Positions 38,583-60,477 of a DNA stretch of 64,000 nt are shown here, in pieces. A program made the translations under genes and the position numbers. The first letter of the stretch is position 1. Every line of letters begins with the position of its first letter. The stretch comes from an uncultured Chloroflexia bacterium (GTDB taxonomy: Bacteria > Chloroflexota > Limnocylindria > Limnocylindrales > CSP1-4). The stretch lies in assembly GCA_963752475.1 (NCBI GenBank), contig CAVVYR010000007.1, forward strand, positions 384,001 through 448,000, written 5' to 3'. The notes beneath the pieces were generated by a model. It saw only the letters and a list, made by a program, of their open reading frames with translations, made no database searches and had not been told where the DNA came from.

Positions 38583-41500
38583 ATGTACTCGACCAAGCGT
38601 CGTGGCAAGGGCACCGCGTTCCTTGCCGTCCTGCAGTCACTACTACTACTGACCGCGCTGGTGCTGGTGCCAGCATCAGCCATCGCCCAGGACGGCCACC
38701 ACTCCCAGGTCGACCTGGCCGAGGACATCGTCAAGGCCAACGCCGATCACCCCAAGGGCAGCCTCGGGGACCGCGGATTCAAGCTCCGCCTCTTCCCCCA
38801 GCAGCCCAAGGTCGCGGTCGGCGGCAAGGTCGTCGTGTCCGCCTGGGTCTGCCCCGGCTGGGACAAGACCCCCTTCGGCGGCCCCAAGGGTGACGGCAAG
38901 CCCGGTGGCGATGACACCTGCAAGCCGATCAAGGCCGAGTGGTCCGTCGAGGGCCCTGCCACGCTCGCCAACCACAAGGCCCTCAAGACCCGCCTCGTGC
39001 TCAATGCCGACGGTGCCGTCCGCCTCACGGCCGAAGTCGATGACCTCAAGCAGTCCACGAAGATCACCGTCAAGGGGACGGCCGCCAAGAACCGCGGCTC
39101 CGATGCCGCCGCGATCGTGAAGAAGGCCGCCCAGAAGGAGGCCAAGGCCGCCAAGGTCAAGGCCCAGAAGGCCGCCGCCAGGCAGGCCGCCGCCGAGCAG
39201 GCCGCGCCGCCGAGCAGGCCGCTGCCGAGCAGGCCGCTGCTGCCCAGGCCGCTGCTGCTGCTGCCAAGCCGGCCGCCCCCGCCGCCGAGCCCGCGCAGGT
39301 CGCCTCTCCTGCCGCCGAGCCCGCCGTCGAAGCGCCCATCATCGAAGAGCCCGCCGCCGAGGAGCCCGCCCAGGCCCCGGTGGAGGAATCCGTCCCGGCC
39401 GAGGAGCCCGCTGAAGAGCCGGCCGCCGAGGAGCCCGAGCCGCCGAGGAGCCTGCGGCCGAGGAGCCCAATGCCGACGAGCCCGAGGCCGAGGAGCCCGC
39501 TGCCGAGGAGCCCATGCCGAAGAGCCCGGCCGCCGAGGAGCCCGCGGCCGAGGAGCCCGCTGAGGCCCCGGCCGCCGAGGAGCCCGCTGCCGAGGAGCCC
39601 GCTGAAGAGCCCGAGCCGACGAGCAGCCCGCTGCCGAGGAGCCTGCTGAAGAGCCCGCCGCCGAGGAGGAGCAGCCCGCTGCCGAGGAGCCAGCGAGCCC
39701 GCCGCCGAGGAGGAGAGCCCGCCGCCGAGGAGGAGAGCCCGCCGCCGAGGAGGAGCAGCCCGCCGCCGAGGAGGAGAGCCCGCCGCCGAGGAGGAGCAGC
39801 CCGCCGCCGAGGAGGAGAGCCCGCCGCCGAGGAGGAGCAGCCCGCCGCCGAGGAGGAGAGCCCGCCGCCGAGGAGGAGCAGCCCGCCGCCGAAGAGCCTG
39901 CCGCCGAGGAGCCTGCTGCCGAGGAGCCCATCGAGGCCCCGGCTGAAGAGCCCGCTGCCGAGGCCCCGGCCGCTGAAGAGCCCGCCGCCAAGGAGCCCAA
40001 GGCTCAGGCTGCAGCTCAGGCCGTCACCGTCCAGGCTGATCCCCTGCAGATCGGAACGGCTGGCCTCACCAGCCTCGCCATCGACGCCAAGCTCGCGAAC
40101 CACACGAGCGCAGAGAACAACGGCGGAAGCAACGCCGAGAACTGCATCCGCTATACCCCGATCCCGAACGCGGCCCCCAACCAGACCGAGACGACCTGGG
40201 TCGATGCCAACAGCAACCCCGACACCGCCTGGACCGCCCACGGTCGGTACACGGTCCCGAACCAGCAGGGATCGGTCTGCCCACCGGACCCGTCCATCAA
40301 TCTGGACGAGCAAAGCTCCATCGGTTTCACGCCCGCTGCCTATGCGCCCAACGATGTCCCCACGGGTAGCCCCTTCCTGCTCGGTAGGTTCACGCATGAC
40401 AACAACGTCATCACCGGTGTTGACAGCCTTTACACGGGTGACCTGAAGATTCGCCTCACCGCCGACAACACGAGCACCCTCACCTACAACTGGGGCTTCA
40501 ACGAGACAAACAACTACCCCAACAGTGGCGTCTGCGAGTTCGGCAACGAGCCGTGCGCGGACAAGACCTGGTTCAACAACACCATCGACGACACGACCAT
40601 CACTAGTGGTGGTATCCCGTACCAGTTGGTGATCATCGGCTTCAGGAGCGACGTTGATGGCAGCTGCCCCGGGACGCCGTCCGGCACTCCCACCGACAAC
40701 TGGTGGACCGCCGAGGACACGACCAGCTACGGCTGCCTGTACGCCGAGCTGACAGAGAAGCGCGCCCTCAAGATCGTCAAGGAGGTCCTCGGCGCTCCGG
40801 CGCCCAACAAGGGCTTCCCCTTCACCTCCAGCAGTTCCTTCGGCACCGACAGCCCGTGGGACAGCAGCAACGGTGGCAAGACGCTCAAGGACGACGGAGT
40901 CAACGACTCCTGGGGTCCGAAGACGTTCCTCTCGACCGAAGAGGACGTGACGATCACCGAGAGCATCCCGAATGGCTGGATCCTCAAGGACGTCGTCTGC
41001 TCGGACAAGTACACGACCTACACCCAGGGCACCCACTACACCCTGAATAAGGGTACGGGCAAGCTCGTCCTGAACAACATCCCCGAGTCCAACAAGGCAG
41101 ACGCGCTGATGGTGACGTGTACCTTCAAGAACGAGCGCGATAGTGGCACCATCATCGTCAAGAAGAAGGCCGTCCCGGACGACGGTACGCCCTTCACGTT
41201 CGATCCGTCATGGAACAGCGAGCCGAACTTCAACCTGTTCCACAACGACAGCAAGACCTTCACCGACCTGCCCGCTGGCGTGGAGTACTCGGTCTCCGAG
41301 ATCAACATCCCCACCCACTGGGTCCTGACCAAGGTGGAGTGCAAGCAGGGCGAGCAGGTCCTGGCCGACGAGAACGGCGAGGCCTTCGAGCTGAAGCCCG
41401 GCGAGACCGTCACCTGCACCTTCACCAACAAGAAGGCCAGCATCGACATCGAGAAGGCCACCAACGGCGCCGACGCCGACAGCCCCACCGGACCCTTCAT

Positions 41501-44500
41501 CGCGGTGGGCAACCCGGTCAACTGGACCTATGAGGTCGAGAACACCGGCAACGTCGCGCTCACCAACGTGTCCGTCACCGACGACCAGGGTGTGACGGTG
41601 ACCTGCCCGCAGGACACGCTCGCCGCCGGCGAGTCGATGACCTGCACCGCCAACGGCACGGCCACGGCCGGCCAGTACGACAACCTCGGCACCGCCACCG
41701 GCACCCCGCCGGCCGGCCCGCCCGTCGACGATGAGTACCGAGCCACTACTTCGGCGCGGACGCCAGCATCGACATCGAGAAGGCCACCAACGGCGCCGAC
41801 GCCGACAGCCCCACCGGACCCTTCATCGCGGTGGGTGACCCGGTCAACTGGACCTATGAGGTCGAGAACACCGGCAACGTCGCGCTCACCAACGTGTCCG
41901 TCACCGACGACCAGGGTGTGACGGTGACCTGCCCGCAGGACACGCTCGCCGCCGGCGAGTCGATGACCTGCACCGCCAACGGCACGGCCACGGCCGGCCA
42001 GTACGACAACCTCGGCACCGCCACCGGCACCCCGCCGGCCGGCCCGCCCGTCGACGATGAGGATCCGAGCCACTACTTCGGCGCGGACGCCAGCATCGAC
42101 ATCGAGAAGGCCACCAACGGCGCCGACGCCGACAGCCCCACCGGACCCTTCATCGCGGTGGGTGACCCGGTCAACTGGACCTATGAGGTCGAGAACACCG
42201 GCAACGTCGCGCTCACCAACGTGTCCGTCACCGACGACCAGGGTGTGACGGTGACCTGCCCGCAGGACACGCTCGCCGCCGGCGAGTCGATGACCTGCAC
42301 CGCCAACGGCACGGCCACGGCCGGCCAGTACGACAACCTCGGCACCGCCACCGGCACCCCGCCGGCCGGCCCGCCCGTCGACGATGAGGATCCGAGCCAC
42401 TACTTCGGCGCGGACGCCAGCATCGACATCGAGAAGGCCACCAACGGCGCCGACGCCGACAGCCCCACCGGACCCTTCATCGCGGTGGGTGACCCGGTCA
42501 ACTGGGAATACGAGGTCACCAACGACGGCAACGTCGACCTCACCGACGTGGAGGTCACCGACAGCGACGTGGCCGCCAGCGCCATCGACTGCGGTGCTCC
42601 CGACAACGACAACGTCATCGAGAGCCTGGCGGTGGGCCAGACCGTGACCTGTGAGGCCACGGGCACGGCCACGGCCGGCCAGTACGACAACCTCGGCACC
42701 GCCACCGGCACCCCGCCGGCCGGCCCGCCCGTCGACGATGAGGATCCGAGCCACTACTTCGGCGCGGACGCCAGCATCGACATCGAGAAGGCCACCAACG
42801 GCGCCGACGCCGACAGCCCCACCGGACCCTTCATCGCGGTGGGTGCCACGGTCACCTGGGAATACGAGGTCACCAACGACGGCAACGTCGACCTCACCGA
42901 CGTGGAGGTCACCGACAGCGACGTGGCCGCCAGCGCCATCGACTGCGGTGCTCCCGACAACGACAACGTCATCGAGAGCCTGGCGGTGGGCCAGACCGTG
43001 ACCTGTGAGGCCACGGGCACGGCCACGGCCGGCCAGTACGACAACCTCGGCACCGCCACCGGCACCCCGCCGGCCGGCCCGCCCGTCGACGATGAGGATC
43101 CGAGCCACTACTTCGGCGCGGACGCCAGCATCGACATCGAGAAGGCCACCAACGGCGCCGACGCCGACAGCCCCACCGGACCCTTCATCGCGGTGGGCAA
43201 CCCGGTCAACTGGACCTATGAGGTCGAGAACACCGGCAACGTCGCGCTCACCAACGTGTCCGTCACCGACGACCAGGGTGTGACGGTGACCTGCCCGCAG
43301 GACACGCTCGCCGCCGGCGAGTCGATGACCTGCACCGCCAACGGCACGGCCACGGCCGGCCAGTACGACAACCTCGGCACCGCCACCGGCACCCCGCCGG
43401 CCGGCCCGCCCGTCGACGATGAGGATCCGAGCCACTACTTCGGCGCGGACGCCAGCATCGACATCGAGAAGGCCACCAACGGCGCCGACGCCGACAGCCC
43501 CACCGGACCCTTCATCGCGGTGGGTGACCCGGTCAACTGGACCTATGAGGTCGAGAACACCGGCAACGTCGCGCTCACCAACGTGTCCGTCACCGACGAC
43601 CAGGGTGTGACGGTGACCTGCCCGCAGGACACGCTCGCCGCCGGCGAGTCGATGACCTGCACCGCCAACGGCACGGCCACGGCCGGCCAGTACGACAACC
43701 TCGGCACCGCCACCGGCACCCCGCCGGCCGGCCCGCCCGTCGACGATGAGGATCCGAGCCACTACTTCGGCGCGGACGCCAGCATCGACATCGAGAAGGC
43801 CACCAACGGCGCCGACGCCGACAGCCCCACCGGACCCTTCATCGCGGTGGGTGACCCGGTCAACTGGGAATACGAGGTCACCAACGACGGCAACGTCGAC
43901 CTCACCGACGTGGAGGTCACCGACAGCGACGTGGCCGCCAGCGCCATCGACTGCGGTGCTCCCGACAACGACAACGTCATCGAGAGCCTGGCGGTGGGCC
44001 AGACCGTGACCTGTGAGGCCACGGGCACGGCCACGGCCGGCCAGTACGACAACCTCGGCACCGCCACCGGCACCCCGCCGGCCGGCCCGCCCGTCGACGA
44101 TGAGGATCCGAGCCACTACTTCGGCGCGGACGCCAGCATCGACATCGAGAAGGCCACCAACGGCGCCGACGCCGACAGCCCCACCGGACCCTTCATCGCG
44201 GTGGGCAACCCGGTCAACTGGACCTATGAGGTCGAGAACACCGGCAACGTCGCGCTCACCAACGTGTCCGTCACCGACGACCAGGGTGTGACGGTGACCT
44301 GCCCGCAGGACACGCTCGCCGCCGGCGAGTCGATGACCTGCACCGCCAACGGCACGGCCACGGCCGGCCAGTACGACAACCTCGGCACCGCCACCGGCAC
44401 CCCGCCGGCCGGCCCGCCCGTCGACGATGAGGATCCGAGCCACTACTTCGGCGCGGACGCCAGCATCGACATCGAGAAGGCCACCAACGGCGCCGACGCC

Positions 44501-46682
44501 GACAGCCCCACCGGACCCTTCATCGCGGTGGGTGACCCGGTCAACTGGACCTATGAGGTCGAGAACACCGGCAACGTCGCGCTCACCAACGTGTCCGTCA
44601 CCGACGACCAGGGTGTGACGGTGACCTGCCCGCAGGACACGCTCGCCGCCGGCGAGTCGATGACCTGCACCGCCAACGGCACGGCCACGGCCGGCCAGTA
44701 CGACAACCTCGGCACCGCCACCGGCACCCCGCCGGCCGGCCCGCCCGTCGACGATGAGGATCCGAGCCACTACTTCGGCGCGGACGCCAGCATCGACATC
44801 GAGAAGGCCACCAACGGCGCCGACGCCGACAGCCCCACCGGACCCTTCATCGCGGTGGGCAGCACCGTCAACTGGACCTATGAGGTCGAGAACACCGGCA
44901 ACGTCGCGCTCACCAACGTGTCCGTCACCGACGACCAGGGTGTGACGGTGACCTGCCCGCAGGACACGCTCGCCGCCGGCGAGTCGATGACCTGCACCGC
45001 CAACGGCACGGCCACGGCCGGCCAGTACGACAACCTCGGCACCGCCACCGGCACCCCGCCGGCCGGCCCGCCCGTCGACGATGAGGATCCGAGCCACTAC
45101 TTCGGCGCGGACGCCAGCATCGACATCGAGAAGGCCACCAACGGCGCCGACGCCGACAGCCCCACCGGACCCTTCATCGCGGTGGGTGACCCGGTCAACT
45201 GGACCTATGAGGTCGAGAACACCGGCAACGTCGCGCTCACCAACGTGTCCGTCACCGACGACCAGGGTGTGACGGTGACCTGCCCGCAGGACACGCTCGC
45301 CGCCGGCGAGTCGATGACCTGCACCGCCAACGGCACGGCCACGGCCGGCCAGTACGACAACCTCGGCACCGCCACCGGCACCCCGCCGGCCGGCCCGCCC
45401 GTCGACGATGACGATCCGAGCCACTACTTCGGCGCGGACGCCAGCATCGACATCGAGAAGGCCACCAACGGCGCCGACGCCGACAGCCCCACCGGACCCT
45501 TCATCGCGGTGGGCAGCACCGTCAACTGGGCCTACATCGTCACCAACACCGGCAACGTCGCCCTGAGCGACGTGACCGTCACCGACGACGAGCTGGCCCC
45601 CACTGATATCGTGTGCGACGGCTCCGACGACAACGTCATCCCGTCCCTGTTGCCGGGCGCCAGTGCGAACTGCGCGGCCACCGGCACCGCCGTGGCCGGC
45701 CAGTACGACAACATCGGCACCGCCACCGGCACCCCGCCGGCCGGCGACCCGCCGACCGATGACCGATCCGAGCCACTACTTCGGTGCCGTGCCCGGCATC
45801 GACATCCAGAAGGCCACCAACGGCCAGGACGCCGACGCCCCGACCGGACCGGTCGTGGCCGTGGGTGATCCCATCACCTGGACCTACGTGGTCACCAACA
45901 CCGGCAACGTCGCCCTGAGCGACGTGACCGTCACCGACAACAAGCTTGCCGCCAGCGCCATCGCGTGCGACGGCAGTGGCACCAACGTCATCGCGTCCCT
46001 GGCGCCGAAGGCGTCCGTGACCTGCAAGGCCACGGGTACCGCCGTCGCGGGCCAGTACGCCAACACGGGCTCCGCCACCGGCACGCCGCCGGAGGGTGAG
46101 CCACCGGCGGACTCCGACCCGAGCCACTACTTCGGTGCCGCTCCCGGCATCGACATCGAGAAGTCCACCAATGGCTTCGACGCCGACAACCCGACGGGTC
46201 CGGGCGTGCAGGTCGGTGAGTCCATCACCTGGACCTATGAGGTCACCAACACCGGCAACGTCACGCTCACCGGCGTGACCGTCACCGACGACCAGGGTGT
46301 GGTGGTCTCCTGTCCGAAGAGCACGCTCGTCGCCGGCGAGTCGATGACCTGCACCGCGAGCGGTACGGCCACGGCCGGCCAGTACGTCAACACCGGCACC
46401 GCCACCGGCACCCCGCCGGTCGGCGTGGCCCCGAGCGACAGCGACAAGAGCCACTACTTCGGCATCGAGGTCGAGGTCGAGTCCACCCCGCTCCCGACCG
46501 AGTCCCTGAAGCCCACGGACATGCTGTTCACGACCGACACCATCGGTCCGGCCGATGACGGCGATCCCATGGGTGCCCTGTTCAACTGGGCCCTCTGGCT
46601 CGCGCTCAGTGCGCTGCTCATCGTGGGCACCGCCGCGATCATCCGCCGCGAGCGCTACGCGGAGGTCAAGACCCGCCGCTAG
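38583..46682 (+). CDS. Giant surface adhesin-like protein copy 1 (15 Ig-like DUF11/DUF7507-type repeats), several apparent frameshifts
   Basis: Signal peptide; shared N-terminal domain; Ala/Glu/Pro stalk; THDN-containing domain; two SpaA/prealbumin-like domains (CTFKN, CTFTN); repeats; C-terminal TM plus basic tail. Frame breaks near 39200-39900, 41735, 45762. Confidence 0.85.
41436..46460 (+). repeat. 15 coding tandem units of 327 bp (type A) or about 350 bp (types B-E)
   Basis: Units start near 41436, 41762, 42089, 42416, 42770, 43124, 43451, 43778, 44132, 44459, 44786, 45113, 45440, 45795, 46146. Confidence 0.93.
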
Positions 46683-46713
46683 CACCCACGGTCGATCCCA
46701 GACCGCATCCACC

Positions 46714-46755
46714 ACGAAGGCCGGGCTCGGAGAGGGGCCCGGCCTTCGTCTCTGT
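46714..46755 (+). terminator. Terminator hairpin after adhesin copy 1
   Basis: ACGAAGGCCGGGCTC...GGGCCCGGCCTTCGT-CTCTGT. Confidence 0.75.
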
Positions 46756-47071
46756 CCGGCCCGGGGTCGGAGGAGGGAGCTACGGGCGGCGGACAGTCGC
46801 CGTCTGCGGTGCATGCCGGGCTGTGAAGAACGGTGAGGTCGCGCCTCGCCACGACGTTGTGGAACGGTGCTAGTGCGCACCGCATATGGCCGATTGGTAC
46901 TAGGACCGCTTGCCAAAGGTCATGGCGAGAGTGAGACTTAGCCTTCGCGGCTCAGGCCGTGGATGGCCGGATTCATCCCGGCGTACTTATTCACTCCGAG
47001 CGGAGTAGGTATCTATCGGCGAACGGGACCCAGAGGCGAAATCGTGGGTCCGAACCGAAGGAGAGGCATCG

Positions 47072-50000
47072 ATGTACTCGACCAAGCGTCGTGGCAAGGG
47101 CACCGCGTTCCTTGCCGTCCTGCAGTCACTACTACTACTGACCGCGCTGGTGCTGGTGCCAGCATCAGCCATCGCCCAGGACGGCCACCACTCCCAGGTC
47201 GACCTGGCCGAGGACATCGTCAAGGCCAACGCCGATCACCCCAAGGGCAGCCTCGGGGACCGCGGATTCAAGCTCCGCCTGTTCCCCCAGCAGCCCAAGG
47301 TCGCGGTCGGCGGCAAGGTCGTCGTGTCCGCCTGGGTCTGCCCCGGCTGGGACAAGACCCCCTTCGGCGGCCCCAAGGGTGACGGCAAGCCCGGTGGCGA
47401 TGACACCTGCAAGCCGATCAAGGCCGAGTGGTCCGTCGAGGGCCCTGCCACGCTCGCCAACCACAAGGCCCTCAAGACCCGCCTCGTGCTCAATGCCGAC
47501 GGTGCCGTCCGCCTCACGGCCGAAGTCGATGACCTCAAGCAGTCCACGAAGATCACCGTCAAGGGGACGGCCGCCAAGAACCGCGGCTCCGATGCCGCCG
47601 CGATCGTGAAGAAGGCCGCCCAGAAGGAGGCCAAGGCCGCCAAGGTCAAGGCCCAGAAGGCCGCCGCCAGGCAGGCCGCCGCCAGGCAGGCCGCTGCCGC
47701 CGAGCAGGCCGCTGCTGAGCAGGCCGCTGCTGCCCAGGCCGCTGCTGCTGCTGCCAAGCCGGCCGCCCCCGCCGCCGAGCCCGCGCAGGTCGCCTCTCCT
47801 GCTGCCGAGCCCGCCGTCGAAGCACCCATCAACGAAGAGCCCGCCGCCGAGGAGCCCGCCCAGGCCCCGGTGGAGGACTCCGTCCCGGCCGAGGAGCCTG
47901 CTGAAGCGCCGGCCGCCGAAGAGCCCAAGAGCGAAGAGCCTGCGGCCGACGAGCCCAAGGCCGACGAGCCCAAGGCCGAAGAGCCTGCGGCCGAGGAGCC
48001 CAAGGCCGACGAGCCCAAGGCCGAAGAGCCTGCGGCCGAGGAGCCCGCAGAGGCCCCGGTGGAGGAATCTGTCCCTGAGGCTCCCGCCGAAGAGCCCAAG
48101 AACGAGCAGCCCGCCGCCGAGGAGGAGCAGCCCGCCGCCGAGGAGGAGCAGCCCGCCGCCGAGGAGAGCAGGGCCGCCGAGCAGCCCGCCGCCGAGGAGG
48201 AGCAGCCCGCCGCCGAGGAGGAGCAGCCCGCCGCCGAGGAGGAGCAGCCCGCCGCCGAGGAGGAGCAGCCCGCCGCCGAGGAGGAGCAGCCCGCCGCCGA
48301 GGAGGAGCAGCCCGCCGCCGAGGAGGAGCAGCCCGCCGCCGAGGAGGAGCAGCCCGCCGCCGAGGAGGAGCAGCCCGCCGCCGAGGAGGAGCAGCCCGCC
48401 GCCGAGGAGGAGCAGCCCGCCGCCGAGGAGGAGCAGCCCGCCGCCGAGGAGGAGCAGCCCGCCGCCGAGGAGGAGCAGCCCGCCGCCGAAGAGCCTGCCG
48501 CCGAGGAGCCTGCTGCCGAGGAGCCCATCGAGGCCCCGGCTGAAGAGCCCGCTGCCGAGGCCCCGGCCGCTGAAGAGCCCGCCGCCAAGGAGCCCAAGGC
48601 TCAGGCTGCAGCTCAGGCCGTCACCGTCCAGGCTGATCCCCTGCAGATCGGAACGGCTGGCCTCACCAGCCTCGCCATCGACGCCAAGCTCGCGAACCAC
48701 ACGAGCGCAGAGAACAACGGCGGAAGCAACGCCGAGAACTGCATCCGCTATACCCCGATCCCGAACGCGGCCCCCAACCAGACCGAGACGACCTGGGTCG
48801 ATGCCAACAGCAACCCCGACACCGCCTGGACCGCCCACGGTCGGTACACGGTCCCGAACCAGCAGGGATCGGTCTGCCCACCGGACCCGTCCATCAATCT
48901 GGACGAGCAAAGCTCCATCGGTTTCACGCCCGCTGCCTATGCGCCCAACGATGTCCCCACGGGTAGCCCCTTCCTGCTCGGTAGGTTCACGCATGACAAC
49001 AACGTCATCACCGGTGTTGACAGCCTTTACACGGGTGACCTGAAGATTCGCCTCACCGCCGACAACACGAGCACCCTCACCTACAACTGGGGCTTCAACG
49101 AGACAAACAACTACCCCAACAGTGGCGTCTGCGAGTTCGGCAACGAGCCGTGCGCGGACAAGACCTGGTTCAACAACACCATCGACGACACGACCATCAC
49201 TAGTGGTGGTATCCCGTACCAGTTGGTGATCATCGGCTTCAGGAGCGACGTTGATGGCAGCTGCCCCGGGACGCCGTCCGGCACTCCCACCGACAACTGG
49301 TGGACCGCCGAGGACACGACCAGCTACGGCTGCCTGTACGCCGAGCTGACAGAGAAGCGCGCCCTCAAGATCGTCAAGGAGGTCCTCGGCGCTCCGGCGC
49401 CCAACAAGGGCTTCCCCTTCACCTCCAGCAGTTCCTTCGGCACCGACAGCCCGTGGGACAGCAGCAACGGTGGCAAGACGCTCAAGGACGACGGAGTCAA
49501 CGACTCCTGGGGTCCGAAGACGTTCCTCTCGACCGAAGAGGACGTGACGATCACCGAGAGCATCCCGAATGGCTGGATCCTCAAGGACGTCGTCTGCTCG
49601 GACAAGTACACGACCTACACCCAGGGCACCCACTACACCCTGAATAAGGGTACGGGCAAGCTCGTCCTGAACAACATCCCCGAGTCCAACAAGGCAGACG
49701 CGCTGATGGTGACGTGTACCTTCAAGAACGAGCGCGATAGTGGCACCATCATCGTCAAGAAGAAGGCCGTCCCGGACGACGGTACGCCCTTCACGTTCGA
49801 TCCGTCATGGAACAGCGAGCCGAACTTCAACCTGTTCCACAACGACAGCAAGACCTTCACCGACCTGCCCGCTGGCGTGGAGTACTCGGTCTCCGAGATC
49901 AACATCCCCACCCACTGGGTCCTGACCAAGGTGGAGTGCAAGCAGGGCGAGCAGGTCCTGGCCGACGAGAACGGCGAGGCCTTCGAGCTGAAGCCCGGCG

Positions 50001-53000
50001 AGACCGTCACCTGCACCTTCACCAACAAGAAGGCCAGCATCGACATCGAGAAGGCCACCAACGGCGCCGACGCCGACAGCCCCACCGGACCCTTCATCGC
50101 GGTGGGCAACCCGGTCAACTGGACCTATGAGGTCGAGAACACCGGCAACGTCGCGCTCACCAACGTGTCCGTCACCGACGACCAGGGTGTGACGGTGACC
50201 TGCCCGCAGGACACGCTCGCCGCCGGCGAGTCGATGACCTGCACCGCCAACGGCACGGCCACGGCCGGCCAGTACGACAACCTCGGCACCGCCACCGGCA
50301 CCCCGCCGGCCGGCCCGCCCGTCGACGATGAGGACCCGAGCCACTACTTCGGCGCGGACGCCAGCATCGACATCGAGAAGGCCACCAACGGCGCCGACGC
50401 CGACAGCCCCACCGGACCCTTCATCGCGGTGGGTGACCCGGTCAACTGGACCTATGAGGTCGAGAACACCGGCAACGTCGCGCTCACCAACGTGTCCGTC
50501 ACCGACGACCAGGGTGTGACGGTGACCTGCCCGCAGGACACGCTCGCCGCCGGCGAGTCGATGACCTGCACCGCCAACGGCACGGCCACGGCCGGCCAGT
50601 ACGACAACCTCGGCACCGCCACCGGCACCCCGCCGGCCGGCCCGCCCGTCGACGATGAGGATCCGAGCCACTACTTCGGCGCGGACGCCAGCATCGACAT
50701 CGAGAAGGCCACCAACGGCGCCGACGCCGACAGCCCCACCGGACCCTTCATCGCGGTGGGTGACCCGGTCAACTGGACCTATGAGGTCGAGAACACCGGC
50801 AACGTCGCGCTCACCAACGTGTCCGTCACCGACGACCAGGGTGTGACGGTGACCTGCCCGCAGGACACGCTCGCCGCCGGCGAGTCGATGACCTGCACCG
50901 CCAACGGCACGGCCACGGCCGGCCAGTACGACAACCTCGGCACCGCCACCGGCACCCCGCCGGCCGGCCCGCCCGTCGACGATGAGGATCCGAGCCACTA
51001 CTTCGGCGCGGACGCCAGCATCGACATCGAGAAGGCCACCAACGGCGCCGACGCCGACAGCCCCACCGGACCCTTCATCGCGGTGGGTGACCCGGTCAAC
51101 TGGACCTATGAGGTCGAGAACACCGGCAACGTCGCGCTCACCAACGTGTCCGTCACCGACGACCAGGGTGTGACGGTGACCTGCCCGCAGGACACGCTCG
51201 CCGCCGGCGAGTCGATGACCTGCACCGCCAACGGCACGGCCACGGCCGGCCAGTACGACAACCTCGGCACCGCCACCGGCACCCCGCCGGCCGGCCCGCC
51301 CGTCGACGATGAGGATCCGAGCCACTACTTCGGCGCGGACGCCAGCATCGACATCGAGAAGGCCACCAACGGCGCCGACGCCGACAGCCCCACCGGACCC
51401 TTCATCGCGGTGGGTGACCCGGTCAACTGGACCTATGAGGTCGAGAACACCGGCAACGTCGCGCTCACCAACGTGTCCGTCACCGACGACCAGGGTGTGA
51501 CGGTGACCTGCCCGCAGGACACGCTCGCCGCCGGCGAGTCGATGACCTGCACCGCCAACGGCACGGCCACGGCCGGCCAGTACGACAACCTCGGCACCGC
51601 CACCGGCACCCCGCCGGCCGGCCCGCCCGTCGACGATGAGGATCCGAGCCACTACTTCGGCGCGGACGCCAGCATCGACATCGAGAAGGCCACCAACGGC
51701 GCCGACGCCGACAGCCCCACCGGACCCTTCATCGCGGTGGGTGACCCGGTCAACTGGACCTATGAGGTCGAGAACACCGGCAACGTCGCGCTCACCAACG
51801 TGTCCGTCACCGACGACCAGGGTGTGACGGTGACCTGCCCGCAGGACACGCTCGCCGCCGGCGAGTCGATGACCTGCACCGCCAACGGCACGGCCACGGC
51901 CGGCCAGTACGACAACCTCGGCACCGCCACCGGCACCCCGCCGGCCGGCCCGCCCGTCGACGATGAGGATCCGAGCCACTACTTCGGCGCGGACGCCAGC
52001 ATCGACATCGAGAAGTCCACCAACGGCAGTGACGCCGACACGCCCGACCGGACCCTTCATCGCCGTCGGCAGCACCGTCAACTGGGCCTACATCGTCACC
52101 AACACCGGCAACGTCGTCCTGAACGACGTGACCGTCACCGACGACAAGCTCGCCGACAGCGCCATCGACTGCGGCGACGGCACCAACGTCATCGCGTCCC
52201 TGCTGCCGGGCGCCAGTGCGAACTGCACGGCCACCGGCACCGCCGAGGCCGGCCAGTACGCCAACACCGGCTCCGTCATCGGCACCCCGCCCGGCGAGGG
52301 CGAGCCGCCGACCGACACCGATCCGAGCCACTACTTCGGTGCCGTGCCCGGCATCGACATCGAGAAGGCCACCAACGGCCAGGACGCCGACGCCCCGACC
52401 GGACCGGTCGTGGCCGTGGGTGATCCCATCACCTGGACCTACGTGGTCACCAACACCGGCAACGTCGCCCTGAGCGACGTGACCGTCACCGACAACAAGC
52501 TCGCCGCCAGCGCCATCGTGTGCGACGGCAGTGGCACCAACGTCATCGCGTCCCTGGCGCCGAACGCGTCCGTGACCTGCACGGCCACGGGCACCGCCGT
52601 CGCGGGCCAGTACGCCAACACGGGCTCGGCCACCGGCACGCCGCCCGAGGGCGAGCCAGCCGGCGGACTCCGACCCGAGCCACTACTTCGGTGCCGCTCC
52701 CGGCATCGACATCGAGAAGCTCACCAACGGCTTCGACGCCGACAACCCGACCGGTCCGGGCGTGCAGGTCGGTGAGCCCATCACCTGGACCTATGAGGTC
52801 ACCAACACCGGCAACGTCACGCTCACCGGCGTGACCGTCACCGACGACCAGGGTGTGGTGGTCTCCTGTCCGAAGAGCACGCTCGTCGCCGGCGAATCGA
52901 TGACCTGTACCGCGAGCGGTACGGCCACGGCCGGCCAGTACGTCAACACCGGCACCGCCACCGGCACCCCGCCGGTCGGCGTGGCCCCGAGCGACAGCGA

Positions 53001-53238
53001 CAAGAGCCACTACTTCGGCATCGAGGTCGAGGTCGAGTCCACCCCGCTCCCGACCGAGTCCCTGAAGCCCACGGACATGCTGTTCACGACCGACACCATC
53101 GGTCCGGCCGATGACGGCGATCCCATGGGTGCCCTGTTCAACTGGGCCCTCTGGCTCGCGCTCAGCGCGCTGCTCATCGTGGGCACCGCCGCGATCATCC
53201 GCCGCGAGCGCTACGCGGAGGTCAAGACCCGCCGCTAG
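47072..53238 (+). CDS. Giant surface adhesin-like protein copy 2 (9 Ig-like repeats), frameshifts near 52045 and 52658
   Basis: ORFs 47072..52423, 51963..52775 and 52762..53238 join into the same architecture as copy 1; AAGGAGAGG RBS. Confidence 0.9.
48104..48490 (+). repeat. 21-bp coding VNTR (EQPAAEE, about 18 units)
   Basis: GAGCAGCCCGCCGCCGAGGAG iterated; shorter degenerate counterpart at ~39650-39890. Confidence 0.93.
50033..53016 (+). repeat. 9 coding tandem units (six 327-bp type A plus three divergent terminal units)
   Basis: 327-bp periodicity seen in shadow ORFs at 50328, 50655, 50982, 51309, 51636, 51963. Confidence 0.93.
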
Positions 53239-53269
53239 CACCCACGGTCGATCCCAGACCGCATCCACC

Positions 53270-53311
53270 ACGAAGGCCGGGCTCGGAGAGGGGCCCGGCC
53301 TTCGTCTCTGT
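53270..53311. terminator. Terminator hairpin between adhesin copy 2 and the convergent sortase-like gene
   Basis: Same hairpin as 46714-46755. Confidence 0.75.
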
Positions 53312-53338
53312 CCGGCGCCTGGCGGTCGGGGGAGGGAG

Positions 53339-54207
53339 CTACGGGCGGCGGACGATGTAGACGGCTACGACGGTGGCGCCGAGAAGGATCGCGCCACTGC
53401 CGAGTACCAGCGCCATGGCGTCGAGCTCCTCTTGGGGCTCGGTCACCGGCGCGGCCGTCGCCGCTGCCTGCCGGTTCGCGTTGTTGCTCGCGTTCCTGTT
53501 CTTGTTGCCCTTGGCCTTCGCTGTCGGTGCCGGGGGCGGCTGCCAGCAGGCACGTGGCTTGGGCCTCCGGCCGTGGCTCGTCGGTCCACGCAGCATCGAT
53601 GAGCCGGCCCGCGACCATCAGGCGTGGCGAGGCGCCGGTCGTGCCGGTGCTCGTCTGGAGCACGACCCGTTGCTGGCGCTCATTCGGTCGGTCCGCGATG
53701 TCGTAGTCGAAGGCCACGTCGACCTCGGAGATGCGGTAGGTCAGGAGTCGGCCGTCGCGCAGCTGCAGCTTGATGAGCTTGCCCATCAGCTCGGTCCGCC
53801 CGGACGCGAAGTAGCTCTCGGTCAGGGGCAGGAGCATGCCCGGTTGGGCGTGACCGTAGAGCCAGGCCGTCCCGGGCTGCCCCGGCAGCACCAGCTCCTG
53901 CTCCCTGGAGGTCAGGTACTGGGCCACATCGCAGAGCGGATAGCCGGCGGGGTTGCCGGCGACCTTCCGCCCTTCCCACACGACCGGCAGGTCGATGTCG
54001 AAGTAGGGGACTCGTACGCGTACTGGCCGCGAGCCCTCGTCGAGAGGCACCGGCCGGGCCGTGGGAGTGGTGGGGTCTTCCTGGGCGGCCGCATCGGATC
54101 CCGGGAGTCCGAGCGTCAGCATGCACGGCAAGACCGAGCGTGGACACGACCGTGAGGATCCGCCGCGCGCTCGACGCTGTGGCTGCTGACCGAGGGAAGG
54201 TGAGCAT
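53339..54207 (-). CDS. Sortase-fold protein (class F-like) with Ser at the catalytic Cys position, frameshifts near 54120 and 53565
   Basis: PVRVRVPYFDIDLPVV, PGQPGTAWLYGHA, DGRLLTYRI, VVLQTSTG...PRLMVAG; N-terminal hydrophobic segment; C-terminal TM plus RRP. Confidence 0.75.
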
Positions 54208-54420
54208 CGCCAGACGCTAGCACTCCATCGAGGTTCGCTCACCGGGCCGGCTGACGGTCAGATGCCGGTACTTCCGCCTTCTGGCTGCTCCGGTCTGTTC
54301 GCGTAGGGCAGTCTCGGTCGGCAGGCGGCCTCGCGCCGCCGCGTGGTGACAACTGTCAACGCTCGCTATACTCACCGCGGACCCGCGTCAAGTCGTCGTG
54401 GCGCAGCGGAGGGAGATCGC

Positions 54421-55500
54421 TTGCAGGACCCTGCCCAGCGGATGGATACGCGTCCGCGCGTGGCAGTCATCGAGGATGATGCCGCGGTCAGACGTGTCCT
54501 GAGCCGCATCCTTGATGACGCCGGCTATGCCGTCATCGCCGCCCCCGACGGTGAGCTCGGCCTGCGCGTGGTCAAGGAGCACCACCCGGACATGCTCATC
54601 CTCGACCTGACCTTGCCACGCATGGACGGCCTCGAGATCTGCCGCCGGCTGCGTGCCGACAGCCGCACCGTGGCGCTGCCCATCATCGTCCTTACCGCGC
54701 ACACTTCGACCAGCGACATGGTGGCCGCGCTCGATGCCGGCGCCGACGACTTCGTGACCAAGCCCTTCCAGCAGGTCGAGCTCCTGGCGCGCCTGCGCAG
54801 CTCGTTCCGCACGCGTGAGGTCATCCGCCGCATGGAGCAGGCGCACGACATCGTCGTGGCCCTGGCCAACGCGGTCGAAGCCAAGGACCTCGGGCTCAAG
54901 GATCACTGCCGCTACCTGGCCTACCGCTCCGCGCGCCTCGCCGCCTACGTCGGCCTGCGGGACGGCGAGCTGGAGGGCGTGGCCTACGGCGCGCTGCTCC
55001 ACGACATCGGCAAGATCGGCATCAGCGAGCACGTGTTGCACAAGCCCGGGCCGCTCACCGACGACGAGTTCCGCGTCATGCGCGAACACCCCGAGATCGG
55101 CGAGCGCATCTGCGATCCGTTGCGCATGTCGCGCGACTTCACACCCATCATCCGCCACCACCACGAGCGCTGGGACGGTACGGGCTACCCCGACGGCCTG
55201 AAGGGGGAGGCCATCCCGCTCGGAGCCCGTATCGTGGCCCTCGCCGATGCCTTCGACGCCATCGTCCGCGGCCGCCCGTACCGCGCCGCCCGCACGGTCG
55301 AGGAAGCGTTCGATGAGCTGCGCAAGCACTCGGGGGGCCAGTTCGACCCGGGCCTGGTTCCGCTCTTCATCGAAGAGACGGACCGTGATGGCGCCGGCAT
55401 CGCCCCCAGCGTGGAGTTGCCGCGCGTGGCCCTGTTGGCCCAGGAAGCGCCGATCGTGACGGGCGCGCCAAGTGGAGCCGCGCCCGCCCGCGTCGCCTGA
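54421..55500 (+). CDS. Response regulator with HD-GYP phosphodiesterase domain (RpfG-like)
   Basis: Receiver IEDD/ILDLTLP/FVTKPF; LLHDIGKIG; HHERWDGTGYP; DAFDA...RPY; start TTG 54421 or ATG 54442. Confidence 0.95.
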   Translation: MQDPAQRMDTRPRVAVIEDDAAVRRVLSRILDDAGYAVIAAPDGELGLRVVKEHHPDMLILDLTLPRMDGLEICRRLRADSRTVALPIIVLTAHTSTSDMVAALDAGADDFVTKPFQQVELLARLRSSFRTREVIRRMEQAHDIVVALANAVEAKDLGLKDHCRYLAYRSARLAAYVGLRDGELEGVAYGALLHDIGKIGISEHVLHKPGPLTDDEFRVMREHPEIGERICDPLRMSRDFTPIIRHHHERWDGTGYPDGLKGEAIPLGARIVALADAFDAIVRGRPYRAARTVEEAFDELRKHSGGQFDPGLVPLFIEETDRDGAGIAPSVELPRVALLAQEAPIVTGAPSGAAPARVA

Positions 55501-55525: not shown

Positions 55526-56311
55526 ATGACCGACACCCAGCTTCCGCCAAGCCGCATCCGCTACCACGCGGTCCGGCTCGTGCTGAAGGCCGTGACCAGC
55601 GCCTACGTGCGCACCCGTGTGGTCGGCGCCGAGCGTATCCCCGAGTCGGGCCCGTACATCATCTGCTTCAACCACCCTTCGTGGCTGGACCCGGTCTTCT
55701 TCGCGGCCTACTGGCCCGACCCCGATCGCGACCTCTACATCTTCGGGCCGCGCGAACAGGACATGAGCACTGGCGTGCGCAATGCGCTCATCACCTGGAC
55801 CCGCCGCGGCGTGCCCTTCCAGCCCGAGGCCCAGGACGTCGTCGACACCACCCGTCGTGCGGTGGGGGTGCTCAGGACCGGCGCCTGCCTGGCCATCGCG
55901 GGGGAGGGGCGCTTGAGCGACCACGAAGGCCGCATCCTTCCGCTGGAGACGGGCCTCGCGCACTTCGCCAAGATGGCCACGGCCCCGATCCTGCCCGTTG
56001 CCGTCATCGGGACCCGCTGGATCTCGTTCGGCAGCCGGGTGACACTGCGCGTCGGAGAGGCCGTCTACCCCGATGACTACGCCGGCGGCAGGTCTGGCGC
56101 TCGCGACATGACCGACGAGGTCGAACGTCGTCTCGGGGCCCTGCTGGAGGGCGTCGAGGAGCGCGAACCGCCCGGCTGGCTGGGACGCACCATCTCAGAG
56201 GCTTTCAACGACCGACCCTGGCTGGACGAGGAGCCCGGACGGAGCGCTAGTCGGCGGCTACCTGCGCTTGTCGAGGACCACGATGGCGTCGAGCCAGACG
56301 GTCGTGCCTGA
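55526..56311 (+). CDS. Lysophospholipid acyltransferase (PlsC family)
   Basis: NHPSWLD, AGEGR, PILPV; true stop may be near 56250. Confidence 0.88.
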   Translation: MTDTQLPPSRIRYHAVRLVLKAVTSAYVRTRVVGAERIPESGPYIICFNHPSWLDPVFFAAYWPDPDRDLYIFGPREQDMSTGVRNALITWTRRGVPFQPEAQDVVDTTRRAVGVLRTGACLAIAGEGRLSDHEGRILPLETGLAHFAKMATAPILPVAVIGTRWISFGSRVTLRVGEAVYPDDYAGGRSGARDMTDEVERRLGALLEGVEEREPPGWLGRTISEAFNDRPWLDEEPGRSASRRLPALVEDHDGVEPDGRA

Positions 56312-59300: not shown

Positions 59301-60477
59301 CGAGGCCTTCGTCGCCCGGTTCCTCGGTAGCGGGCTCTGCGGTGGTGGTCTCCTCGGCCAGGGGCTCCTCGCTCGGCTCCGCGGTCGGTCCTTCGGTTTC
59401 GGACTCCTCGGCCCTCGGCGTCTCGGCCGCAGGGTCCGTGCTGGGCTCCTCGGTCGCAGATGCCTCGGGCGCAGTCTCCACGGGTTCCTCAGCAGCGGGC
59501 TCCTTCGGCAGGGGCTCGTCAGCGGCCGGGGCGGCGGCAGCGGCAGCAGCTTCGGCGGTGCTCGCGGCCTTGGCGGCAGCGGCAGCGGCCTTGGCGGCCT
59601 GCTCGGCGGCGGCCTGCCTGGCGGCGGCCTTCTGGGCCTTGACCTTGGCGGCCTTGGCCTCCTTCTGGGCGGCCTTCTTCACGATCGCGGCGGCATCGGA
59701 GCCGCGGTTCTTGGCGGCCGTCTCCTTGACGGTGATCTTCGTGGACTGCTTGAGGTCATCGACTTCGGCCGTGAGGCGGACGGCACCGTCGGCATTGAGC
59801 ACGAGGCGGGTCTTGAGGGCCTTGTGGTTGGCGAGCGTGGCAGGGCCCTCGACGGACCACTCGGCCTTGATCGGCTTGCAGGTGTCATCGCCACCGGGCT
59901 TGCCGTCACCCTTGGGGCCGCCGAAGGGGGTCTTGTCCCAGCCGGGGCAGACCCAGGCGGACACGACGACCTTGCCGCCGACCGCGACCTTGGGCTGCTG
60001 GGGGAAGAGGCGGAGCTTGAATCCGCGGTCCCCGAGGCTGCCCTTGGGGTGATCGGCGTTGGCCTTGACGATGTCCTCGGCCAGGTCGACCTGGGAGTGG
60101 TGGCCGTCCTGGGCGAGCAGGGGCGCGAAGCCTGTGCTGCCTGCCACGAGGACGAGGGACACGAGCAGGGCCATGAACGCGTGGACTCGCGGCGTACGCA
60201 GCCACCGCCGAGCCTCGCGCAAGCGGGAAGCCCGTCCTCGACCAACCTGCGGCGTCTCGATGTGAGTCCGATCAGGGGGTGCTCCGTGCGGCGTCTCGCC
60301 GGTGCCTTCGCCACGGAGCGCCTGGTGCGCCAAGGCCACATCGGAGGCTCGGGGCACGCGCCGACCCGAGGCAGGCTGAAGCGGAGCCTCGGAGGCGTGG
60401 GACAGCGAGCGCGACACGCGCGTGGGCAACAAGCATGCCCTCCCTTCGGTCCAGCCCTCAGGGTCACGGCTGGGCAT
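56258..60477 (-). CDS. Secreted multidomain protein: shared N-terminal domain, Glu/Pro stalk, S8 subtilase, GH25 muramidase, C-terminal beta domain; frameshifts in the last 900 bp
   Basis: IIDTG, HGHGT, GNEG, GTSAA; GLDVSHWNG, KATQG, AYHFF, VVDVE, PMIYT, FWQW; reconstructed end TVWLDAIVVLDKRR*; start uncertain (60477, ~60432 or 60174). Confidence 0.87.
59594..60115 (-). repeat. Inverted third copy of the ~520-bp N-terminal cassette (others at 38684-39200 and 47173-47690)
   Basis: Encodes AQDGHHSQVDLAEDIVK...KAAARQAAAEQAA in all three genes. Confidence 0.95.

Follow-up and report, generated by a model that had tools for sequence, protein, structure and literature searches.

A candidate serine-type sortase encoded beside giant adhesins with PxT(D/N)-type tails in Limnocylindria

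Sortases are the textbook cysteine transpeptidases; to our knowledge all known members have a catalytic cysteine, and replacing it in the laboratory yields an inactive enzyme. The locus described here raises the question of whether a protein of this kind could sort surface proteins with a serine at the position of that cysteine. It lies in a 64,000-nucleotide stretch of DNA from an uncultured member of the Limnocylindria (Chloroflexota), which we refer to as the window. Two tandem adhesin genes are followed there by a convergent gene for a sortase homologue, whose features are collected in Table 1.

Table 1. Features of the enzyme gene and of the two adhesin genes in the window
Feature	Position	Strand	Basis or remark
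Adhesin 1, tandem paralogue of adhesin 2	38583..46682	(+)	Broken into at least five frames
Adhesin 1 tail	46488..46679	(+)	KPTDML 46509-46526, helix 46587-46643
Adhesin 2	47072..53238	(+)	ORFs, domain searches; broken into at least three frames
Adhesin 2 tail	53044..53235	(+)	KPTDML 53065-53082, spacer, helix 53143-53199, then RRERYAEVKTRR
Ser-type sortase homologue, long type	53339..54207	(-)	ORFs, sequence, Pfam Sortase, fold, intact homologues
Enzyme's own C-terminal membrane helix and RRP	53342..53416	(-)	Sequence; kept in the long type
Invariant Cys of PRACW, after strand 8	53546..53548	(-)	Third frame in the window; Cys in 50/50 rows
Second single-base insertion (~53565), splits domain from PRACW, linker and helix	53558..53568	(-)	Sequence, four relatives
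Arg codon CGC (SPRL), start of strand 8	53622..53624	(-)	hhalign, model, alignment A3
Ser codon AGC, position of the sortase catalytic Cys (LQTS versus TLxTC)	53649..53651	(-)	hhalign, model strand, conservation
His codon CAC (LYGHAQPGM), end of strand 4	53850..53852	(-)	hhalign, model, alignment A3
Invariant Cys of GYPLCDVA	53931..53933	(-)	Cys in 50/50 rows
First single-base insertion (~54123), splits signal peptide from domain	54118..54128	(-)	Base absent in four relatives

Layout and fold of the enzyme

Intact homologues of this long type of enzyme are 280-290 residues in length and carry, all in one frame, a signal peptide, a sortase-fold domain, a linker of ~45 residues, a C-terminal membrane helix and RRP. 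In the window the corresponding 869 bases do not form one open frame. The signal peptide, starting at the ATG at 54207, is in a first frame, the sortase domain in a second (ORF 53235-54242), and RACW, the C-terminal helix and RRP in a third (ORF 53339-53596), because of two single-base insertions. These are the only indels of a length not a multiple of three that set the gene of the window apart from its four nearest relatives, each being an extra base in the window. Related contigs from other samples, on which the read-level check rests and of which the best run shares 27% of sampled words, also have one base fewer at ~54125 and at ~53560. A sequence-only reading of this DNA had placed a sortase-like gene here; its location and motifs stand, while the gene cannot be read in a single frame in this assembly. 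The same reading had called the enzyme's C-terminal helix and basic tail atypical, which does not hold, since class C sortases carry a C-terminal membrane helix as well. A match of this helix to the NCBIfam model GVDTG_CTERM (13.5 bits against a cut-off of 29) was taken as noise.

The frame with the domain matches Pfam Sortase (PF04203) with 27.6 bits (cut-off 26.6, E 2.7e-6) over profile positions 2-124 of 125, and the enzyme scored 30.1 bits in the genome scan. The margin above the cut-off is small, and a Kelch-fused paralogue, at 25.1 bits, falls under it. None of the NCBIfam sortase class models (A-F, GN) came near its cut-off, the best being class_F_sortase with 17.6 bits against 166; other family members gave 17.3 and 20.9 bits or no match. 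Querying solved structures by sequence gave no match for the window frame alone, and for the family profile only Bacillus anthracis SrtA at E 0.41. A search of the Atlas gave sortase-domain clusters, mostly from Chloroflexota. Alignment by hhalign with the same genome's own Cys sortase reached a probability of 95.8% (E 6.6e-9), and at the level of sequence the likeness to sortases goes beyond chance. We have used an AlphaFold model of an intact homologue (P0003, 85% identical, pLDDT 81) for structural comparison. Foldseek found 128 PDB matches at E <= 0.001, all of them sortases among the matches listed, and VIA-align reached Z >= 8 for 129 chains, with Z 14.5 and an rmsd of 2.5 A over 129 residues for Streptococcus pyogenes SrtA. 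On this evidence the enzyme has a sortase fold, as the sequence-only reading had supposed.

A conserved serine at the nucleophile position

On the minus strand the domain reads ...GYPLCDVAQ...LYGHAQPGM...VVLQTSTGTTGASPRLMVAGRL..., and hhalign pairs its YGHAQPG, LQTS and SPRL with YGHAREG, LQTC and SPRF of the genome's Cys sortase, so that the serine falls on the cysteine of LTLQTC. The positions of His, Ser, Arg and of two Cys were assigned from secondary structure together with alignment. In the model, H124 ends strand 117-124, S191 ends strand 7 (184-191) and R200 starts strand 200-212. The codon positions confirm the sites at which the sequence-only reading had seen a His in LYGHA, a Ser in LQTS and an Arg in SPRL.

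The serine is a property of the family. Alignment A3, of 50 diverse members, has His, Q189 and T190 in all 50, S191 in 49 and Lys or Arg at position 200 in 47 (K 45, R 2; the remaining three are V 2, Q 1); the Arg of the window thus stands where most members have Lys and the f3 forms have Glu. G193, beside the serine, is kept too. Among 150 cluster representatives, 116 of the 131 rows that hold a residue at the nucleophile position have Ser. At the level of gene copies Ser is found in 112 of 114, encoded by AGC (100), AGT (8) or TCN (4); the other two copies have Arg, and TGC or TGT occurs in none. Subfamilies holding the invariant His and Ser are only 26-40% identical. The Ser-type family fills the class Limnocylindria, and the nearest homologues outside it have L.TC, i.e. 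they keep the cysteine. Related contigs covering the Ser codon do not differ there among the rows listed. Because serine recurs at such frequency in diverse homologues and in gene copies, and cysteine in no copy, the AGC codon is not a read error, and the LQTS singled out from one sequence proves to be conserved. This conservation favours catalysis by the serine over an inactive partner. Against it, a Ser-His pair in which no acidic third residue is apparent forms a weaker nucleophile than the Cys/His of sortases.

The two cysteines that the sequence-only reading had pointed out elsewhere in the protein, in YPLCD and RACW, are both at these motifs and invariant, and from their conservation they probably pair as a disulfide. 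Subfamilies that lack both retain the serine. A relocated Cys nucleophile (C97 or C225) was ruled out: members of family f4, which keep the His, TLQTSTG with its Ser, and the Arg of PR(F/Y), are free of Cys throughout the final 185 residues of their reading frame, the part that contains the domain. In a quick tree, those Ser forms that lack the Cys pair are placed among Cys sortases; the switch from Cys to Ser may therefore have arisen more than once.

Adhesin tails and their pairing with the enzyme

Adhesin 2 consists of a signal peptide, an N-terminal module shared with adhesin 1, PAAEE-type low-complexity repeats, a choice-of-anchor K domain, many DUF7507/DUF11 repeats and a tail. The first 600 bases of the two adhesin genes are identical, both proteins starting with MYSTKRRGKGTAFLAVLQSLLLLTALVLVPASAIAQ (signal peptide judged by eye), and so are their last 64 residues, PLPTESLKPTDMLFTTDTIGPADDGDPMGALFNWALWLALSALLIVGTAAIIRRERYAEVKTRR. 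Relatives of adhesin 2 are single open frames of 1349-2469 residues that end in the tail. The tail is built of KPTDML, ~21 residues, a membrane helix and a basic stretch, and at its C-terminal end reads WALWLALSALLIVGTAAII followed by RRERYAEVKTRR and the stop codon; the adhesins thus have at their extreme C-terminus the hydrophobic helix and basic stretch of a sorting signal. Classical sorting signals have a shorter spacer between motif and helix than the ~21 residues seen here. The sequence-only reading had described the tail of both adhesins as LPTESLKPTD before a spacer and hydrophobic segment. KPTD, spacer and helix are indeed present in both adhesins; LPTES is not conserved in relatives.

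All 11 tails that were aligned, in contrast, have PTDML unchanged, in agreement with the proposed conservation of a PTD motif among tail-bearing proteins. The signal has the consensus [KP][PSE]T[DN][MT]L and is of the PxT(D/N) type. The forms found with the long type of enzyme are KPTDML, PPTDML, KPTNML, PSTDML, PSTDTL, PPTDTL and PETNTL, and those beside other enzyme clades are SPATDT, SPSTDT and LPETDT (with flanks, for example, QPPTDMLLVTD, SLKPTDMLFTTD and SPATDTL). LPXTG is absent among all tail motif forms seen. Both LPxTD and an NPQTN-type motif serve as sortase signals in other systems, according to excerpts of PMC9210967 and PMC8225981, respectively.

To follow the pairing we counted tails in 61 related genomes. 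They occur in 16 of the 17 genomes with the long, C-terminally anchored enzyme type and in 0 of the 44 others, so that the suspected genome-wide co-occurrence is borne out for the long type; in the sole long-type genome without a tail the enzyme gene is on a 2.5-kb contig. In each of the 16 tail genomes a tail sits at a distance of ~80-650 bp from the gene of the enzyme; 15 of these pairs are convergent and one is co-directional, and adjacency is still kept where the orientation has changed (G024). Eight further tails are unlinked, all of them in genomes with the enzyme. Among long-type loci from species genomes, 20 of 21 have a tail gene. All 21 have common flanking genes, a response regulator of 84-95% identity flanking 19, and because the loci are syntenic their adjacency counts as about one lineage.

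Other enzyme clades have cargo of their own. In one (L072, L076, L080, L086 and L096) a small secreted protein ending SP(A/S)TDT-helix-RRR is encoded upstream, and at L070 an unrelated small secreted protein alongside ends LPETDT-helix-basic; together their tails have the form (L/S)PxTDT-helix-RRR. The PxTD cargo beside these two clades represents independent repeats of the pairing. Among short-type loci, only 6 of 58 have adjacent PxTD cargo. A complex prediction for the enzyme domain (A1, 55-232) with the tail (A2, 1-36) scored 0.02 against a mark of 0.32 and weighs neither for nor against binding.

Could another enzyme process the tails? In five tail-bearing genomes Pfam Sortase matches nothing but genes of the Ser family, and an orthologue of the genome's own Cys sortase occurs in only 8 of the 61 genomes, with a distribution that does not follow that of the tails. 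We therefore ruled out this sortase as the tail processor; a Cys sortase is not needed for the tails. A search of this genome (88.8% complete) for Exosortase_EpsH gave no match, and neither an exosortase nor an archaeosortase was found in it.

Proposed mechanism, alternatives and known systems

We propose, with a probability of roughly 0.55, that the gene encodes a dedicated sorting enzyme of sortase fold in which Ser takes the place of the catalytic Cys, and that it has as cargo the DUF7507 adhesins next to it, together with one or two proteins encoded elsewhere. From the observed fold, the conserved His, Ser and Arg/Lys in their places, and a three-part tail that co-occurs with the enzyme and adjoins it, we infer cleavage, its site, the nucleophile and the acceptor as follows. 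The adhesins would be exported via their N-terminal signal peptides, and their C-terminal helix, with the basic RRERYAEVKTRR behind it, would keep them in the membrane. The enzyme, tethered by its own helix on the linker, would bind (L/Q)(K/P)PT-D-M-L ~21 residues outside the membrane. The Ser, activated by the His and helped by Arg/Lys, would attack the bond after Thr, by analogy with the T-G bond of LPXTG and the T-N bond of NPQTN, and form an ester acyl-enzyme, which could be resolved by an envelope amine, so that the adhesin is covalently anchored, or by water, so that it is released. More tentatively, and at somewhat less than even odds, the whole Limnocylindria clade with the Cys-to-Ser replacement may still consist of sorting transpeptidases that act on PxT(D/N)-type signals through an ester acyl-enzyme; no serine sortase would have been known from nature before them.

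With cargo and Ser-His chemistry unchanged, the active enzyme might instead be a hydrolase that cuts the tail for release or maturation and ligates nothing to the envelope. The evidence linking enzyme and tail fits such an enzyme equally well, water could resolve the ester, and simple release would be possible because the cut site is ~21 residues from the membrane. Nevertheless, known enzymes of the sortase fold are transpeptidases and large repeat adhesins usually stay on the surface, and we consider a hydrolase unlikely. More doubtful still is a pseudoenzyme of sortase fold, which would leave the PxTD tail uncut and bind it in the role of chaperone, receptor or retention factor. The absence of the catalytic Cys, the variation among K, R and E at position 200 and the lack of an identified acidic partner for the His would agree with this; however, His and Ser are invariant across such divergent subfamilies and across both Ser codon families, and Q189, T190 and G193 are kept with them, a pattern expected of an active site rather than of a relic.

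It is very improbable that tail and enzyme have no functional link, with adjacency inherited through synteny and the tail a simple membrane anchor that has a conserved juxtamembrane stretch. The flanking genes common to 21 of 21 long-type loci and the close kinship of the tail-bearing genomes would be expected in that case, but unlinked tails are confined to genomes with the enzyme, adjacency outlives the orientation change in G024, PxTD tails on two unrelated cargo families adjoin two other enzyme clades, and the motif resembles the sortase motifs in excerpts of PMC8225981 and PMC9210967. A different question is whether the system is dead in this organism. The enzyme gene and both adhesin genes would then be pseudogenes, and their insertions and frame breaks real. 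The two single-base insertions, seen against four relatives as well as related contigs, and the many frame breaks in the adhesin genes and the neighbouring S8/GH25 gene would fit. On the other hand, both insertions are within short G/C runs, there is no premature stop and no large deletion, and the same genes are broken, though at different sites, in other few-contig assemblies (G005, G015, G021, G024, G031, L040, L049 and L050) and intact in other assemblies, a pattern that looks like indel error. We think a dead system rather unlikely; the two insertions and the adhesin frame breaks are probably assembly errors.

The sorting-enzyme reading suggests a new, serine-based route for fixing proteins to the bacterial surface. 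If it is true, the sortase fold supports a second nucleophile in a large natural clade, a switch of the same kind as those in other protease clans and between penicillin-binding proteins and L,D-transpeptidases. PxT(D/N)(M/T) would then join the signals used for surface-protein prediction, the display of giant adhesins by uncultured Limnocylindria would be explained, and a thiol-free protein-ligation enzyme with a new recognition motif might become available. The claim is directly testable with the soluble domain and short peptides. A literature search, with most subscription journals outside its reach, turned up neither a serine sortase nor any description of sortases in Limnocylindria.

With sortases at large (PF04203, classes A-F) the family shares the eight-stranded barrel, the His at the end of strand 4, (T)LxT before the nucleophile, in most members an Arg/Lys at the start of strand 8, an extracytoplasmic, membrane-tethered location, and cargo with a motif, a helix and a basic tail. 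It differs in having Ser for Cys, an invariant Cys pair outside the active site and a motif that ends in D/N-(M/T) instead of G. Class C (pilus) sortases likewise combine an N-terminal signal peptide with a C-terminal membrane helix and are encoded beside their substrates; unlike them, our family has no lid motif that we could see, has Ser for Cys, and its adhesins show no sign of polymerisation. The class B sortase with NPQTN cargo, as far as excerpts of PMC8225981 describe it, likewise serves one or a few cargo proteins from neighbouring genes and has a motif with PxT followed by N or D, but SrtB uses Cys, its cargo is of other types, and in the lineage of the window the genes are convergent and not one operon. 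Finally, exosortase/PEP-CTERM, archaeosortase/PGF-CTERM, rhombosortase/GlyGly-CTERM and myxosortase/MYXO-CTERM systems have the same C-terminal arrangement of signature motif, helix and basic tail, and the link to their enzymes was recognised through co-occurrence and adjacency, the logic set out in excerpts of PMC11980579; in contrast to the Limnocylindria family, those enzymes are polytopic membrane proteins of unrelated folds.

The adhesin locus and its enzyme gene

Two tandem paralogous genes for giant surface proteins (38583-53238, +) are followed in the window, whose G+C is 67-70%, by a convergent enzyme gene. Both adhesins start with a signal peptide and a common N-terminal module, the first 600 bases of the two genes being identical. 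This module is followed in each by low-complexity repeats of the PAAEE type, a choice-of-anchor K domain scoring 49.5 bits against a cut-off of 30, and numerous DUF7507/DUF11 repeats. Each ends in the same tail: KPTDML, then a spacer rich in Gly and Asp (about 21 residues), then a hydrophobic helix and RRERYAEVKTRR. The two genes are a tandem duplication and differ in repeat number. A nearby gene encodes a large Peptidase_S8/Glyco_hydro_25 protein, also secreted, that opens with the N-terminal module of the adhesins (DGHHSQVDLAEDIVKANADHPKG...).

Features of the adhesin locus in the window
Feature	Position	Strand	Remarks
Adhesin 1 gene	38583-46682	+	at least five frames
Tail of adhesin 1	46488-46679	+	64 residues, same as adhesin 2
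Adhesin 2 gene	47072-53238	+	at least three frames
Tail of adhesin 2	53044-53235	+	64 residues, same as adhesin 1
Enzyme gene	53339-54207	-	three frames
Signal peptide MLTFPRSAATASSARRILTVVSTLGLAVHADA	start 54207	-	first frame of enzyme gene
Sortase-like domain	within 53339-54207	-	second frame of enzyme gene
PRACW, linker, helix and RRP	within 53339-54207	-	third frame of enzyme gene
Response regulator with HD_5 domain	54343-55500	+	divergent from enzyme gene
Peptidase_S8/Glyco_hydro_25 gene	56398-60477, with 56247-57149	-	

The enzyme gene had been read from sequence alone as a gene with sortase motifs and a C-terminal transmembrane segment. These parts are all present, but they do not share a single open frame. 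In intact homologues of 280-290 residues the signal peptide, domain and C-terminal part share one frame. Compared with the four closest loci, the window's gene has extra single bases near 54123 and near 53565, its remaining indels being of 15, 15 and 9 bases, and related contigs from two other samples are each one base shorter at these sites. The Peptidase_S8/Glyco_hydro_25 gene is frame-broken too, since its C-terminal part runs on in another frame. In other few-contig assemblies the adhesin, Peptidase_S8/Glyco_hydro_25 and enzyme genes are broken at other positions, and in many more they are intact; the best-matching sequencing run covers at most 27% of sampled words. From these comparisons, the frame breaks in all these genes are probably assembly indels.

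Fold, nucleophile position and spread of the enzyme family

The enzyme folds like a sortase, and Ser occupies the position of the nucleophile. The Pfam Sortase profile matches it at 27.6 bits (cut-off 26.6) over positions 2-124 of 125. An intact homologue, P0003, 85% identical to the domain of the window's enzyme, gave a structure model with pLDDT 81, built on a 32-sequence alignment. Foldseek returned 128 PDB matches to this model at E <= 0.001, sortases throughout among the matches listed, and VIA-align gave Z >= 8 for 129 chains (S. pyogenes SrtA: Z 14.5, rmsd 2.5 Å, 129 residues). The model places His124 at the end of strand 117-124, Ser191 at the end of strand 184-191 and Arg200 at the start of strand 200-212, where sortases have their His, Cys and Arg. 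The same genome encodes an ordinary Cys sortase of 299 aa on contig C1 (NCBIfam sortase_fam, 48 bits, cut-off 39), with which the enzyme family aligns at a probability of 95.8% (E 6.6e-9), pairing YGHAQPG with YGHAREG, LQTS with LQTC and SPRL with SPRF.

LQTSTG was found in the first 11 of 11 homologues read. An exhaustive search yielded 212 cluster representatives at E <= 0.001; in the alignment of the best 150, where many rows are fragments, 131 rows have a residue at the nucleophile position, which is Ser in 116 and Cys in 3. Among 50 diverse members this position is Ser in 49 and Pro in one, while His, Gln189, Thr190 and both Cys of the pair GYPxCDVA/PRxC are present in all 50; position 200 is Lys in 45, Arg in 2 and another residue in 3. 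Family copies in fetched loci, some of which may come from the same genomes, have Ser in 112 of 114 and Cys in none, the Ser codons being AGC (100), AGT (8), TCC (2), TCT (1) and TCG (1). The sortase-like domain with Ser at the nucleophile position, put forward in the sequence-only reading, is borne out; LQTS is retained in homologues, which that reading had proposed to check, and on this conservation Ser is a family trait. The two remaining copies (loci L003-L115) have Arg, encoded by CGC, one base from AGC; possible explanations are errors, dead copies or a variant form. The Cys pair would most simply be a disulfide fixing the C-terminal extension.

A scan of species genomes gave at least 577 confirmed stretches. 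The best 80 of these (79 distinct loci) are nearly all titled Chloroflexota, mostly Limnocylindrales or Limnocylindria, the exceptions being one titled Candidatus Dormiibacterota and one titled uncultured Firmicutes. The family model matches 67 of 401 sampled phylum genomes, weaker scores including Cys sortases; the 67 include the unpublished genome G330, which enters no other result. Within the window's class, Limnocylindria, matching genomes make up 23/23, 4/4, 15/16 and 2/2 of families f1 to f4. Fetched f3 and f4 members have TLQTS(Q/T)G, fetched nearest homologues from other classes have L.TC...DPR, and the two share the His motif YAHA(Q/R)xGMF. The f3 and f4 forms are missing the Cys pair, and f3 forms have Glu at the Arg/Lys position. 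A relocated Cys nucleophile is ruled out in f4, because two members are free of Cys over the final 185 residues of their frame, the part that contains the domain. In a quick tree, f3 (L116-L118) and f4 (L121-L122) forms group with Cys sortases and not with the main Ser family; the switch from Cys to Ser may have occurred more than once, or the root may lie elsewhere.

Two architectures occur. Long-type proteins, among them the window's enzyme, carry a signal peptide and a C-terminal helix. Those of the short type stop just past the second Cys, and at the N-terminus they have an anchor, a lipobox or a fused domain. The window's genome has a second member of 567 aa (L035:5254-6957, +; contig C6, about 446.3-448.0 kb). 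Its signal peptide is followed by an N-terminal region containing Kelch motifs and by a Ser-type domain that ends in PRACG, and it has no C-terminal helix. This Kelch-fused type is nested inside the long-type clade in the quick tree.

The tail signal and its link to the enzyme

By tblastn the window's genome holds four tails, those of the two adhesins and two on unlinked genes (contigs C4 and C6), the C6 gene encoding a further DUF7507 protein. The 11 tails aligned all share P-T-D-M-L and several residues of the helix; motif variants are KPTDML, PPTDML, KPTNML, PSTDML, PSTDTL, PPTDTL and PETNTL. The suggested co-occurrence of a PTD tail with the Ser enzyme is supported: the long-type enzyme is present in 17 of 61 related genomes; tails occur in 16 of them and in none of the other 44. 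In the single exception the enzyme gene lies on a 2.5-kb contig. All 16 have a tail that ends within about 80-650 bp of the enzyme gene, in convergent orientation in 15; in the other, G024, the two genes share a strand, with the tail gene upstream. Another eight tails belong to unlinked genes (two in the window's genome and one each in G009, G010, G013, G014, G021 and G022). At species-genome loci, which partly overlap the 61 genomes, a tail gene is found at 20 of 21 long-type loci, the missing one at a contig end, and the tail model gave no match at 58 short-type loci. These comparisons show a conserved tail signal whose presence tracks that of the enzyme across genomes. A 328-aa open frame on C4 (35048-36034, +) ends ...SAPATEILTGGDLRSEGEGPGLVGNP, helix, TRLIQRD, and may represent a PxTE variant of the signal.

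These counts come from kin genomes. All 21 long-type loci are syntenic, with response regulator and acyltransferase genes in each, so their adjacency amounts to about one lineage. The regulator, the one with the HD_5 domain, stands at the same place in all 21 (64-95% identity), and in 19 its identity is 84-95%. Evidence beyond one lineage is that unlinked tails are confined to enzyme-carrying genomes, that adjacency is kept in G024 despite the changed orientation, and that a pairing with PxTD cargo recurs elsewhere in the enzyme family. In a short-type clade (L072, L076, L080, L086, L096) a small secreted protein without a Pfam match is encoded directly upstream on the same strand and ends in HIYNFExSP(A/S)TDT, about 12 residues, a helix (out of frame in L080) and RRR. 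At L070 an unrelated small secreted Glu-rich protein (4986-5717, +) ends in LPETDT, followed after 6 residues by a helix and a basic tail. Both enzyme groups fall outside the long-type clade (support 100) in the quick tree, so three unrelated cargo families with PxTD stand beside three enzyme lineages; among short-type loci such a neighbour occurs in these 6 of 58 only. A single residue sets the L070 motif apart from the classical LPETG, and the gene of this protein overlaps the beginning of the Ser-type enzyme gene.

Another sorting enzyme might instead process the tails. Orthologues of the C1 Cys sortase (E <= 1e-36) occur in 8 of the 61 genomes, two of them without tails, and in five tail-bearing genomes (G001, G008, G010, G014, G027), two of which reach 90% completeness or more in 3-10 contigs, the sole Pfam Sortase matches are Ser-family genes. 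A Cys sortase is therefore not required for the tails. A search of the window's genome for exosortase-type proteins gave no match.

Proposed mechanism and comparison with cysteine sortases

With the fold, residue positions, conservation and genomic link of the enzyme established, we infer the chemical steps as follows. In the tail motif Pro lies two or one residues ahead of Thr, which is followed by D or N. Known sortase signals have the same form: NPQTN is the class B signal according to a passage of PMC8225981, and a passage of PMC9210967 includes LPxTD among the sortase anchor motifs searched for. This likeness leads us to propose that the tethered enzyme would cut the tail after Thr, with Ser as nucleophile and His as base, and that the adhesin would then be handed to an envelope amine or released.

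The full-text literature searched, with subscription journals mostly outside it, gave no report of serine sortases or of sortases in Limnocylindria; in some public records, members are annotated as "class F sortase", "sortase domain-containing protein" or "hypothetical protein". Unlike cysteine sortases, the Ser family is without the defining catalytic Cys, and it falls below the cut-off of every NCBIfam sortase class model, so we keep it apart from the cysteine sortases. It is homologous to sortases, and it probably works like them.
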